Notes: a model not told the origin generated them from the letters alone. Positions 32,039 through 39,334 are shown, numbered from the stretch's first letter. The stretch is DNA of 64,000 nt from Alphaproteobacteria bacterium (GCA_024402765.1 JAKSTC010000004.1:541-64540); one strand, 5' to 3'. Numbers and translations: made by a program.

Positions 32039-32895
32039 AGGTTGGAATTATAGGGGCGGGTGCATGGGGCAGTGCATTGGGGACCATTGTCGCTGATAGT
32101 GGTAACGATGTTTTATTATGGTCTTTTTGTGGGGATTATAAAGATTTTGGTAAAACCTATGCTAATTTGCGTGTGACGTCCAATATGGCGTCTGTTGCGG
32201 ATACAGATGTATGGATATTGGTTACACCGGCATCGTTTTTTCGTGAAACATTACAGAATGCAAAAACATATTATAAAAACCAACCAATTATTATTTGCAC
32301 CAAAGGGGCAGAGGTTGTGTCTGGTTCCTGTATGTCTGAAATCGTGGCTGATGTTTTACCAGATGCGCAAAATGTTGGGGTTTTGTCAGGACCACAATTT
32401 GCGATCGAGGTGGCAAATGGTGTTCCCACAGGTTCGACAATTGCGGGCAATGATGTTGTCCAAGATTGTGCACACATTATATTTAAGAACTTATATTTAA
32501 GTGATAGCGATGATATCATTGGAACGCAATTGTGCGGTATTGGTAAAAATGCGGTCGCGCTAATTGCGGGGTATAACAGTGTTGTTGCACGTGGTGAAAA
32601 TGAACGTGCAATGATATTTACGCGGGCATGGTGCGAAGTGATCAAACTGGGGCTGGCAATGGGTGCGAAAATTGAAACATTTTCTGATTTATGTGGAATA
32701 GGGGATCTGTTTTTATCTGCGACATCCGTGACCAGTCGTAATTTTTCAGGTGGCATATCAATCGCGCATGGTGAAGATTTGAACGGCACGATTGAGGGGT
32801 TATATGCGCTATCCGCCCTGATTAAACGCGCAGAACAAAATGGTGTGGCAACACCAATATTATGTGAAATGCGTGATAGGATGCAAATAAAATAA
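32035..32895 (+). CDS. gpsA: NAD(P)H-dependent glycerol-3-phosphate dehydrogenase
   Basis: GAGAWGSAL, CTKG, LSGPQFA, KN, GIGDL, SRN. Confidence 0.92.
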   Translation: MKVGIIGAGAWGSALGTIVADSGNDVLLWSFCGDYKDFGKTYANLRVTSNMASVADTDVWILVTPASFFRETLQNAKTYYKNQPIIICTKGAEVVSGSCMSEIVADVLPDAQNVGVLSGPQFAIEVANGVPTGSTIAGNDVVQDCAHIIFKNLYLSDSDDIIGTQLCGIGKNAVALIAGYNSVVARGENERAMIFTRAWCEVIKLGLAMGAKIETFSDLCGIGDLFLSATSVTSRNFSGGISIAHGEDLNGTIEGLYALSALIKRAEQNGVATPILCEMRDRMQIK

Positions 32896-32901
32896 CATTT
32901 G

Positions 32902-32925
32902 AACCGCCCGATTTGGGCGGTTTTT
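32902..32925 (+). terminator. Terminator after gpsA
   Basis: aaccgccc-gattt-gggcggtt followed by T tract. Confidence 0.8.
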
Positions 32926-32977
32926 AAGTGCAAAAAATTCTGGACATAAATTATCAAAATGTTGTAAAATAGTTCTT

Positions 32978-33220
32978 GTCATAGCAGGTTGTTATGATGG
33001 GGTGTCGAAACCCGTTAAGTCGTGTCTGAAATGGACGTAAAAAAATCTCCAACTAAATTGGGTTGGAGGGTTGCCGAATATAAAGAATAAGGCACACAAT
33101 TTCGACTTAAATTGTTTCGAACCTCCAACCACTCGACATATATCGGTGGTTTTTTGGTGGCGTATTTCCACGCATTTATACGCCACCACCAAGGATTAAA
33201 ACCGGGGGGACGAAAGGAAA
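32978..33220 (+). ncRNA. Structured cis-leader RNA, copy A (C4/CI antisense-like)
   Basis: Hairpin 32978-32998; target tcgaaac/ttaagtcg at 33005-33022; outer stem 33061-33069/33122-33130 enclosing two hairpins; terminator-like hairpin plus T tract. Homologous to 39017-39289 with compensatory changes. Confidence 0.75.
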
Positions 33221-33883
33221 ATGAAACGATTGTTTTTGATTTTGTGTTTAATAATAATATGCAATACATCATACGCAGATATTGCATCAGTGGGCTATGT
33301 GGATAGCGTTGTTGCGCCTATACAGGATAGTATTTCAAACATTGATTCAATAAAACAGGATAAATTACCGAATCCACCCAATAATAATGGAATATATAAA
33401 CTGGTTTGGAACGGCAATACTGGACAAATTGTGTGGGAATTTGAACAATATTCATTAACCTGTACACCCAACACATACGACATCGGGTTTAGTCAGTGCA
33501 TAGACCCGACTATACAAGGGTCGGATTTTGGTTTTATAGACCACAATGGCTCAAGTAATAAAGCAAGTGGCTATGGCTTAACAGAAAACGGGACATGGGG
33601 TACAACATTATATACAGGTGATAAAGTAACGGGTATAGCGTCATGTAATAGCACAAAAGGTACTATAAGGGGTGAATATACCATTACAGAATTTAGTCAA
33701 AGTGATACCGGCATATACTGTTGGTGTAAAATGACGGAACCGGCTGTGTCACGTTGGGTGTTTGAAGGTATTCGCGATGATGAAATATATTGTGCTAGCA
33801 TTTGTGCGGACGCATGCGGTACCTATGTTATGGACAAAACCAATAATATGCGTTTTGGTATATTTGGTTCGATCGGTAATTGA
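33221..33883 (+). CDS. Secreted Cys-rich protein of unknown function
   Basis: Signal peptide; IASVGYVD..KQDKL stalk; C-terminal GIASCNST...YCWCKM...SRWVF...CASICADAC. Confidence 0.85.
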   Translation: MKRLFLILCLIIICNTSYADIASVGYVDSVVAPIQDSISNIDSIKQDKLPNPPNNNGIYKLVWNGNTGQIVWEFEQYSLTCTPNTYDIGFSQCIDPTIQGSDFGFIDHNGSSNKASGYGLTENGTWGTTLYTGDKVTGIASCNSTKGTIRGEYTITEFSQSDTGIYCWCKMTEPAVSRWVFEGIRDDEIYCASICADACGTYVMDKTNNMRFGIFGSIGN

Positions 33884-38221: not shown

Positions 38222-39016
38222 TTATTGCCTCTCATACACATCGGCACAATATTTTTTACCGTCCAACATTGTGCATAAACCATGTTCGGTTCGCCGCCCC
38301 ACCGGCATAAAGACAATATAATCGTCAACATGTAAAACATGGCCACATTCATCAACACTGGTTGCACCCGCAGGTGACATTGTTCGATTCGGACAAGGGG
38401 TGCAGGCGACATTCCCCACAAAGTCTTTATAAGTATTTGGCGGACATAGTGTGCACTTTCCTAATACTGATGGCAATTCAACATACTGTTTATATGGGAT
38501 GTATTGCGTAAGCGGAACATTCCCTTCGACAATAACAATATTACCAAATTCAAATCCGCCAACAACAGATGCGTCGTCTGAAAAGATTTCCATTCCAATG
38601 GTATATATTCCAGGGGGTAGAATCATATCAAATTTGGCACCAATGTCCTTTGAGAACCCATTGCGTTTTATTTTTATGCTATCATATGTTATATCAGATG
38701 GAACTTCAAAAACTGCTGTTTTCCATCCTTTTGGCCTTGATGGTATTGGTGTTATAGTTCCGTTAATAAAAACACTTTTGCGAAAAAACTGAATATACAT
38801 CGATTGTGCGTCACCACTGCTGTCGACAACCGTATTTTTAAAATTATGACCATCTTTTGTAGTATCTCCTGTGGATATCCAAGTATCTTCATTTAATAAA
38901 TTTGTTACTTCTATAAATCTTGAATCTAATACGCCATATCCCATCGGACATTGATCATCGGCAATGGCGGGGGCGGTCAGCCCAAACAATAAAATAACCG
39001 ATAAAAATTTCCGCAT
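38222..39016 (-). CDS. Secreted Cys-rich protein with an ephrin-receptor-like (GCC2/GCC3) Cys repeat
   Basis: Signal peptide (APAIA); CTLCPPNTYKDFVGNVACTPCPNRTMSPAGATSVDEC; GGGAG RBS. Confidence 0.85.
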   Translation of the reverse strand: MRKFLSVILLFGLTAPAIADDQCPMGYGVLDSRFIEVTNLLNEDTWISTGDTTKDGHNFKNTVVDSSGDAQSMYIQFFRKSVFINGTITPIPSRPKGWKTAVFEVPSDITYDSIKIKRNGFSKDIGAKFDMILPPGIYTIGMEIFSDDASVVGGFEFGNIVIVEGNVPLTQYIPYKQYVELPSVLGKCTLCPPNTYKDFVGNVACTPCPNRTMSPAGATSVDECGHVLHVDDYIVFMPVGRRTEHGLCTMLDGKKYCADVYERQ

Positions 39017-39289
39017 AAACTCCCCCAGTTTTATCTTGGTGGTGGCGCATAAATGCGTGGTAAATACGCCACCAAAAAAACCACCGAAAATAAATTCAAG
39101 TGGTCAGGAGGTTCATAACAATCAACAGAATTGTGTTGCTTATTTTGATATATCGCAACCCTCCTGAACCAAATATCAGGAGATTTATCGTCAGACACAA
39201 AAAAAGACGCAATGCGCCTCAATTTATTTTCATACTCTCTGACGCGTTTGATCGGGTTATGACACCCCGTCACGGGAACACCCCATGAC
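39017..39289 (-). ncRNA. Structured cis-leader RNA, copy B (C4/CI antisense-like)
   Basis: Same architecture as 32978-33220 with compensatory substitutions, plus an extra terminator-like hairpin gaggcgc-att-gcgtctt-T tract. Confidence 0.75.
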
Positions 39290-39334
39290 AAAATGTATGT
39301 TATAAGAAAATAATTTTATAGTAAAGAAAAATTT

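Follow-up and report, generated by a model that had tools for sequence, protein, structure and literature searches.

A leader RNA with two mutually exclusive folds upstream of secreted-protein genes in Candidatus Enterousia: a candidate cis-acting attenuator

A 64,000-nucleotide (nt) stretch of an Alphaproteobacteria bacterium (GCA_024402765.1 JAKSTC010000004.1:541-64540; the whole stretch is called the window here) carries two copies of a leader RNA, copy A on the plus and copy B on the minus strand, in which short variable segments are matched by complementary segments farther along that have changed with them. The locus raises the question of whether these segments constitute a private antisense code, by which each RNA would recognize its own target, or the strands of helices within a single transcript. 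The leader is best described as an orphan riboswitch-like element before a large set of secreted-protein genes. With a probability of about three in four, it acts as a cis-acting bistable transcription attenuator of ~185 nt, which has its own promoter and usually precedes the gene of a small secreted protein. Its host belongs to the uncultured, metabolically dependent gut lineage Candidatus Enterousia, for which, to our knowledge, nothing is known about regulation. In the passages of PMC12306168 that concern them, Enterousia (order Rs-D84) are uncultured gut bacteria with genomes below ~1 Mb and strongly reduced metabolism, and these passages make no mention of RNA elements.

A long-range helix closing a four-way junction

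From 5′ to 3′, the leader comprises the promoter, hairpin P0, the sequence GGGGUGU, the 5′ strand of P1a, CCCG, the 5′ strand of P1b, P2, an A-rich joiner, P3 and P4, followed by CACAAUU, the 3′ strand of P1b, AUUG, the 3′ strand of P1a, A-CCUCCAACC, the terminator hairpin and a U tract. In copy A, these elements are located as follows:

32941..32970, plus strand: promoter; -35 box TGGACA, 18-nt spacer, -10 box TAAAAT (10/12 consensus matches)
32978..32998, plus strand: P0, 5′-terminal hairpin of 8 base pairs (bp); double changes in 8/8 pairs, 96.3% of cells paired (50 sequences)
32999..33014, plus strand: Ha, hairpin of the alternative fold; GGGG (32999-33002) with CCCG (33011-33014), most of the P1a 5′ strand lying in its loop
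33005..33022, plus strand: 5′ strands of P1a (33005-33011) and P1b (33015-33022), the "target" of the initial annotation
33024..33036, plus strand: P2, variable hairpin; double changes in 4/4 pairs, 88.7% of cells paired
33038..33053, plus strand: A-rich joiner (33038-33045) and P3 5′ arm UCUCCAAC (33046-33053), the putative anti-antiterminator strand; 96.1% paired
33061..33069, plus strand: arm 2, GGUUGGAGG, whose partner is either the 5′ arm (P3) or the 3′ box (P6)
33070..33097, plus strand: P4, hairpin common to both folds, with the conserved loop GAAUAUAAAGAAUAAG (two AAUA boxes); double changes in 6/6 stem pairs
33097..33114, plus strand: P5, hairpin of the alternative fold; CAAU (33097-33100) with AUUG (33111-33114), the P1b 3′ strand lying in its loop
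33103..33120, plus strand: 3′ strands of P1b (33103-33110) and P1a (33114-33120), the "antisense code" of the initial annotation
33122..33130, plus strand: 3′ box CCUCCAACC, the putative antiterminator strand; the terminator stem starts with its last two C
33127..33155, plus strand: intrinsic terminator predicted from sequence and fold; AACCAC(U)CGA, loop, UCGGUGGUU, U6

Similar boxes (TGGACA/TTTACT and TAnAAT) stand at an equal distance in other copies, as judged by eye, and transcription of copy A would start ~7 nt past the -10 box, at the foot of P0. An ATG at the border of P0 and GGGG in copy A was considered as the start of a leader peptide and rejected, being replaced by GAC, GTT or ATT elsewhere and standing without a ribosome-binding site.

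The complementarity that drew attention to the locus is real: in copy A, TCGAAAC-CCG-TTAAGTCG (33005-33022) is the reverse complement of CGACTTAA-ATT-GTTTCGA (33103-33120), giving 7 + 8 bp with a 3x3 loop. A repeat search recovers the same inverted pair as 25-nt arms (32998-33022 / 33103-33127), along with GGTTGGAGG / CCTCCAACC (33061-33069 / 33122-33130; 9 nt, 100%) and CTCCAAC / GTTGGAG (33047-33053 / 33062-33068). The pairs of copy B described as having changed in concert, TCATAAC/GTTATGA and GATCAA/TTGATT, are present as well:

39074..39295, minus strand: copy B leader
39269-39289, minus strand: P0
39256-39262 (5′) and 39113-39119 (3′), minus strand: P1a, TCATAAC/GTTATGA
39248-39253 (5′) and 39120-39125 (3′), minus strand: P1b, GATCAA/TTGATT, 6 bp including one G-U
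39176-39182, minus strand: P3 5′ arm, CTCCTGA
39160-39167, minus strand: arm 2, TCAGGAG within TCAGGAGG
39104-39111, minus strand: 3′ box, CCTCCTGA
39074-39103, minus strand: predicted terminator

The arms lie on the same strand inside one leader, 80 nt (copy A) and 136 nt (copy B) apart. Because they stand on one transcript and enclose three covarying helices, they form an ordinary intramolecular helix that has drifted with compensation; the "target" and the "antisense code" are the two strands of helix P1 (P1a + P1b), which closes the four-way junction with P2, P3 and P4. P3 consists of UCUCCAAC, a loop and GUUGGAGG.

This arrangement, fold X, is the minimum-energy fold of copy A, and both leaders fold better than their shuffles (z = -3.6 for A and z = -5.1 for B, with 0/200 shuffles as good). 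Aligned by MAFFT without structural information, 17/18 copies of the host genome have a completely paired P1a, in 10 different sequences. Alignment of 50 copies from 30 genomes to R1, a covariance model built from four copies and the fold X structure, gave 94.7% of cells paired (69.0% in shuffles, 37-47% in slid controls), double changes in 47/53 pairs and a covariation score of 0.658 (0.178 in shuffles), values that 0/500 shuffles reach; these figures are inflated, since the alignments used for pair counts were fitted to fold X, and the shuffle controls overstate significance, many of the sequences being paralogues or close kin. Compensated variation is found in P0, P1a, P1b, P2, P4 and the terminator, the last alternating between CCAC/GUGG, CCGC/GCGG and CCGU/ACGG. 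An extension of P1, in which GGGG pairs with ACCUC of the 3′ box, is part of the minimum-energy fold; it was not retained, as changes in GGGG are matched by changes in CCCG rather than in the 3′ box, and it may form transiently.

In the UGA subfamily of leaders, to which copy B belongs, P2 contains an insertion of 40-60 nt. The insertion resembles a small terminator (a GC-rich stem followed by a T run) and is flagged by a simple terminator scan at 39204-39220 of the window (minus strand), as well as in the copies on C7, C5:14685 and C10.

An alternative fold that reaches the terminator

RNAalifold, applied to the MAFFT alignment, predicts P0, Ha, P6, P4, P5 and the terminator, P6 being the helix of arm 2 with the 3′ box. 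For the helices specific to this fold Y (Ha, P6 and P5; 17 pairs in 58 sequences), 91.2% of cells are paired, as against 85.4% in shuffles and 37-58% in slid controls, and 10/17 pairs show double changes, which 0/500 shuffles reach. Ha occurs in several compensated variants (CAGG/CCUG, GUGG/CCAC, UGGG/CCUA, GAGG/CCUC, and GAAAG/CUUUC); its second pair is GC in 34 sequences, GU in 10, AU in 8, UA in 1 and something else in 4. The 3′ box does not track these changes and remains CCTCC. P5 alternates between CAAU/AUUG and CUAU/AUAG, its covarying pair being AU in 27 sequences and UA in 23, with 0 one-sided changes and 6 other combinations.

The script located the 3′ box in 52 rows and missed it in 6 divergent ones; in those 52, P6 comprises 8-12 bp and takes in CC, CCA or CCG of the 5′ arm of the terminator. 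In its columns, 94.8% of cells are paired, and 6/8 pairs are changed on both sides. The claim that an arm of the outer stem has two mutually exclusive partners covarying as a triple proved correct: arm 2 (GUUGGAGG) covaries with both the 5′ arm and the 3′ box in AAC, UGA, UGC, AGC, CUGCC and CAGU variants, and the three inner pairs of P3 change on all three strands. Leaders of other families and orders have GGAAG as arm 2 and CUUCC as the 3′ box, while the 5′ arm retains only wobble or partial pairing, so that P6 has a compensation of its own; in L068, P6 pairs GGGGG with CCCCC. The overlap of the 3′ arm with the start of the terminator was also rightly recognized, as P6 takes in the CC of CCAC.

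Arm 2 is common to P3 and P6, and P6 crosses P1, so that folds X and Y exclude each other. The two-state switch touching the terminator that the initial annotation had suspected is borne out by two mutually exclusive sets of covarying helices. Compensatory changes across the aligned sequences show that both sets are kept, and P6 overlaps the terminator.

A further candidate, P7, would join the A-rich joiner and 5′ arm with the 3′ arm and U tract of the terminator. It extends over 11 nt at 82% in copy A, and among 48 leaders its best run averages 6.25, compared with 5.3 in a control window (runs of >=8 in 13/48 and 2/48, respectively); it is too weak to be claimed.

A putative attenuator and its alternatives

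Fold X would be the terminating state, in which P1 pairs, P3 holds arm 2 (GUUGGAGG), the 3′ box CCUCCAACC is left free and the terminator forms. In fold Y, the putative read-through state, Ha and P5 would each sequester one strand of P1, and arm 2 would exchange the P3 5′ arm for the 3′ box, with P6 covering the first 2-4 bases of the terminator stem. P3 would serve as the anti-antiterminator, P6 as the antiterminator, and the hairpin with its U tract as the terminator; P1 would lock the terminating fold, and Ha together with P5 the read-through fold. The balance between P1 and Ha/P5 might be set by an effector, be it a small ligand, a protein or the kinetics of transcription. The terminator is presumably functional, and expression of the downstream gene would depend on read-through.

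The components of an attenuator are found together in the leader: a promoter, a covarying terminator, the antiterminator candidate P6 and the anti-antiterminator candidate P3. The first frame of at least 50 amino acids (aa) begins 1-68 nt past the end of the model, and the four smallest gaps among those with a ribosome-binding region ahead of the frame measure 19, 21, 23 and 29 nt. Gaps of 19-29 nt leave no room for a promoter, which makes the RNA a leader rather than a separate gene. In constrained folding with nearest-neighbour energies, X is more stable than Y in 47/48 full-length leaders (mean -12.5 kcal/mol) and in 46/48 leaders cut before the 3′ arm of the terminator (mean -7.1 kcal/mol). 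With X as the ground state, the default at equilibrium would be "off", and read-through would need an effector or kinetic trapping through early local hairpins.

The one leader predicted to favour fold Y both in full length and cut is the copy at G000 C6:13726-13899 (L010 / L028). It matches the C18 copy exactly over the 3′ half and is similar to the C4 and C24 copies over the 5′ half, and its P1a contains two mismatches; the combination of the C18 half with a mismatched P1a indicates that copies recombine. According to the computed energies, the C6 copy may represent a natural "locked-on" variant.

Several points weigh against the attenuator. The antiterminating effect of P6 is assumed, as the helix removes only 2-4 bp of the terminator, and the terminator of copy A was not called by the simple scan, probably because its stem is bulged. 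Ha with P1a and P5 with P1b could in principle coexist as pseudoknots, and that part of fold Y would then be no alternative to fold X. Neither CsrA nor Hfq was found in the host genome (94.8% complete); it encodes one cold-shock-domain protein, which nothing ties to the leader. Contigs from one RNA run and one run of unrecorded type give low and patchy cover, including one 148-nt RNA contig on 39036-39182, and are silent on ends and regulation. The inflation of the fold X figures and the kinship of the sequences, given above, belong to the same side of the balance.

The proposal that each leader carries a private antisense code acting in trans on its own target, so that switches could be addressed one by one or surface variants expressed in mutual exclusion, agrees with the covariation of target and code across the copies (on average 14.2/15 positions paired in cognate and 8.5/15 in non-cognate combinations), with the free ~185-nt RNAs that terminated leaders would be, and with the paralogy of the secreted proteins encoded downstream. 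A drifting stem, however, also yields covarying codes, so that covariation cannot separate action in cis from action in trans, and folding in cis of arms that enclose covarying helices on one transcript accounts for it fully. The statement that the RNA from copy A cannot act on copy B presupposes action in trans, although both arms stand on one strand of one transcript. P1a sequences, moreover, are not unique to their copies: only 10 distinct ones occur in 18 copies (4 copies have TAAGAAC and 3 have TAGTAAC, and three further sequences are found twice each), P1b is identical in copy A and the C23 copy, and over the 15 positions cognate pairing falls to 12, while non-cognate pairing rises to 14, some near-cognate pairs reaching 13-14. 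Elsewhere in the host genome, none of the P1 3′ strands has a complementary site with 0-1 mismatch, and matches of the 17-19-nt P1 segments at 2-3 mismatches are paralogous leaders or scattered AT-rich sites. A conserved antisense promoter was likewise not seen; the strand opposite copy A has a single promoter-like match, which lies in variable stem sequence. The C6 recombinant persists with mismatched arms. A trans-acting code is thus very improbable; the variable P1 sequences are the result of stem drift and recombination between copies, not addresses. Equally far-fetched is the remnant of a repeat or mobile element, such as a promoter-bearing miniature element that was spread by duplication and whose stems have no regulatory role. 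High copy number, assembly breaks at copies, a near-identical 3′ module and at least one recombinant copy would suit it, yet compensation in nearly every stem across ~30 genomes of several families shows selection on RNA structure, the orientation towards the downstream gene is fixed (19/19 copies with a gene in view), and reading of the flanks, without a formal search, revealed neither terminal inverted repeats nor target duplications.

An RNA with a single compact, pseudoknotted fold that accommodates P1, Ha, P5 and possibly P6 together and ends at a constitutive terminator is unlikely, and so is its variant as a stand-alone small RNA or an aptamer without termination output, the gene being served by leaky read-through. 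Ha-UG-P1a and P5-UU-P1b are indeed laid out like H-type pseudoknots with short linkers, all helices covary, and the terminator is part of both computed folds, minus 2-4 bp. P3 and P6 nevertheless compete for arm 2, and both are maintained through three-strand changes; P6 also crosses P1, which the 6-7 nt joiner that follows P4 would probably not be long enough to span. The Ha linker measures 2 nt in nearly all copies, but those of P5 vary from ~0 to 4 nt, as expected of a plain loop more than of a fixed pseudoknot, and the distance of 19-29 nt to the start codon marks the RNA as a leader. Besides acting in cis, terminated leaders might work in trans, either as small RNAs through their anti-Shine-Dalgarno-like CCUCC boxes or as protein sponges. 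Each leader has two CCUCC boxes and one GGAGG, a genome may hold 19-42 copies, and terminated riboswitch leaders that act in trans are known from Listeria. The boxes are base-paired in both folds, however, no target or partner was identified, and Hfq and CsrA were, as said above, not found in the genome, which leaves this addition improbable.

The P4 loop (consensus gAATAtatngAATA), unpaired in both folds, is probably the likeliest point of contact for an effector or a tertiary interaction. Conserved joiners and the P4 loop are present, and most conserved positions are explained by pairing in the other fold. It is possible, though rather doubtful, that the leader represents an orphan riboswitch class that is bistable by design, the conserved single-stranded bases of one fold being nearly all paired in the other. 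No firmer is the corollary that one signal gates most of the proteins that Candidatus Enterousia and related gut Alphaproteobacteria with reduced genomes secrete or display on their surface, hosts which otherwise seem to have very few regulators and yet would hold 19-42 or more copies per 0.9 Mb genome.

Distribution, downstream genes and known counterparts

The host genome of the window comprises 921 kb (0.92 Mb) in 24 contigs. A profile of copies A and B, which share 78% identity over their leaders in pairwise alignment, has 25 matches there (nhmmer). R1 finds 21, of which 19 are strong (72-208 bits; copy B scores 91.2 bits) and 2 weak (25.7 and 19.0 bits); the weakest, located before fabF, is probably false. 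The 19 strong copies in 0.92 Mb correspond to a density of ~1 per 48 kb. The first draw from the genus and the order sample together comprise more than 1,000 matches. All distribution figures rest on R1, a narrow model, so that distant relatives are undercounted:

Same genus, first draw: 34/36 genomes, 1-42 matches each
Same genus (Candidatus Enterousia), order sample: 106/107 genomes
Same family: 116/121 genomes
Whole order sample: 124/151 genomes
Other families of the order: 1/4, 5/19, 0/1, 1/2 and 0/3 genomes
Other orders of the class: 4/119 genomes, 29.9-63.7 bits

The four matches in other orders, found in genomes of 1.1-2.5 Mb (L221 in G206, L222 in G274, L223 in G275, and L224 in G191), keep the architecture: P1, the P3/P6 triple in its GGAAG/CUUCC version, the CUAU/AUAG box of P5 and the terminator. 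The family therefore predates the order Rs-D84. An exact-pattern scan of one genome per species yields at least 122 loci; among the loci listed, nearly all come from Candidatus Enterousia or uncultured Alphaproteobacteria of animal and human guts. Three pattern matches (L070, L081, and L100) are on contigs titled Bacteroidota (Muribaculaceae, Bacteroides fragilis), which, given the motif, look like mislabelled or mis-binned alphaproteobacterial DNA.

Several contigs of the host genome (G000) begin or end inside leader copies (C9:1-129, C10:4-216, C15:2-70, and C24:123-331), and the end of C10 overlaps the start of C9 within one copy. As contigs break at the copies, copy numbers in draft genomes are lower bounds.

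In Rfam 15, the only match in the whole window is a tRNA, and the leader has no family at the gathering threshold. Within 32850-33300, with E up to 10, there are 8 chance-level matches (10.7-18.3 bits against cut-offs of 37-86.7), none of which covers the leader core. No description of such a leader was found in the literature on Enterousia, Rs-D84 and attenuation. The leader family is not yet described, while its mechanism, the bistable attenuator, is of a known kind.

Between leader and gene, several copies share a 3′ module, and the two genes of the window are as follows:

33155..33220, plus strand: 3′ module of copy A; hairpin H2 (33155-33188), G6 tract, AAGGA-type ribosome-binding region, with the ATG at 33221
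33221..33883, plus strand: gene downstream of copy A; 220 aa, signal-peptide-like N terminus (MKRLFLILCLIIICNTSYA), no Pfam or NCBIfam family
38222..39016, minus strand: gene downstream of copy B; 264 aa, signal peptide, cysteine-rich Ephrin_rec_like (PF07699, E = 5.4e-10)

The module consists of a strong hairpin (GGUGGCGUAU...AUACGCCACC), a G5-G7 tract, two AAGGA-type boxes and a conserved signal-peptide start. It also occurs at 39017-39074 of the window and at C6:7583-7660, C23:38018-38095, C22:26346-26425 and C15:2-70 of G000; it is near-identical among paralogues and is found as well without the leader RNA, behind unrelated upstream sequence. The variation in G-tract length between copies could allow slippage.

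For 16/17 strong copies with a gene in view, the downstream protein has 144-316 aa and an N terminus that by eye resembles a signal peptide; one copy precedes a 63-aa protein without signal peptide. Cysteine-rich Ephrin_rec_like domains (Pfam) are present in 4/19 downstream proteins of the host genome. The other secreted proteins have no Pfam match, 0/9 match NCBIfam, and a protein atlas gives sub-threshold matches only; one such family, which starts MKRLFLILCL...SYADIASVGYVDSV, has neither a Pfam nor an NCBIfam match. In relatives, a crude signal-peptide rule is passed by 27/39 first downstream frames, and several of the remainder have a recognizable signal peptide or were given the wrong start. 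A minority of leaders, among them L050, L052 and L067 of relatives, are followed by proteins of only 60-72 aa that lack a signal peptide (MK(V/I/A)G.QIE..R...) and look like small DNA-binding proteins. As some leaders precede short proteins of this kind, the regulon is not purely secreted.

With up to 42 matches in one relative, the leader is among the densest cis-regulatory RNA families relative to genome size. It marks a regulon of small secreted, lipo- and cysteine-rich proteins, likely at the interface with host or partner cells. A ligand, if one came to light, would hint at what the bacteria perceive in the gut. The many natural variants, including the predicted locked-"on" recombinant, constitute a ready data set on the encoding of two folds in one sequence. 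More generally, when "codes" covary within a single transcript, a helix is the first reading to consider.

Antisense specificity groups, such as ColE1 RNA I/II, R1 CopA/CopT (R1 here not being the model above) and phage immunity RNAs, also contain short complementary segments that differ between related elements and change in concert. There the two partners are transcribed separately, either from opposite strands or from different genes, whereas the partners in the leader belong to one transcript, and no antisense gene is present. The alpha-r14 or "cuckoo" CcsR family comprises tandem, trans-acting small RNAs of Alphaproteobacteria with CCUCC in hairpin loops. The leader shares with it the multi-copy occurrence in this class and the anti-Shine-Dalgarno-like CCUCC, but bears the motif in the stems of a 5′ leader and has no Rfam match (cmscan).

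The lysine (L box) riboswitch (PMC3384330, PMC3082890) is of the transcriptional "off" type and has a multi-helix junction aptamer. Like it, the leader has a junction closed by P1, variable stems with conserved joiners and loops, and an adjoining terminator with a competing antiterminator; unlike it, the leader matches no Rfam family, and its antiterminator draws on the 3′ arm of the inner helix P3, not on the 3′ strand of P1. The closest parallels in mechanism are the Bacillus subtilis leaders of infC (protein L20) and rplJL (L10(L12)4), which combine a terminator, an antiterminator and an anti-antiterminator with a long-range helix (PMC1865079, PMC4538822). In common with these leaders are the length of ~200 nt, the mutually exclusive folds, a distant pairing within the leader that would decide on the terminator, and the proposed control by premature termination. 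The present leader differs in its reduced-genome alphaproteobacterial host, in the extra hairpins Ha and P5 that sequester the strands of the long-range helix, and in its 19-42 copies per genome before genes of secreted proteins instead of a single copy before one ribosomal operon.

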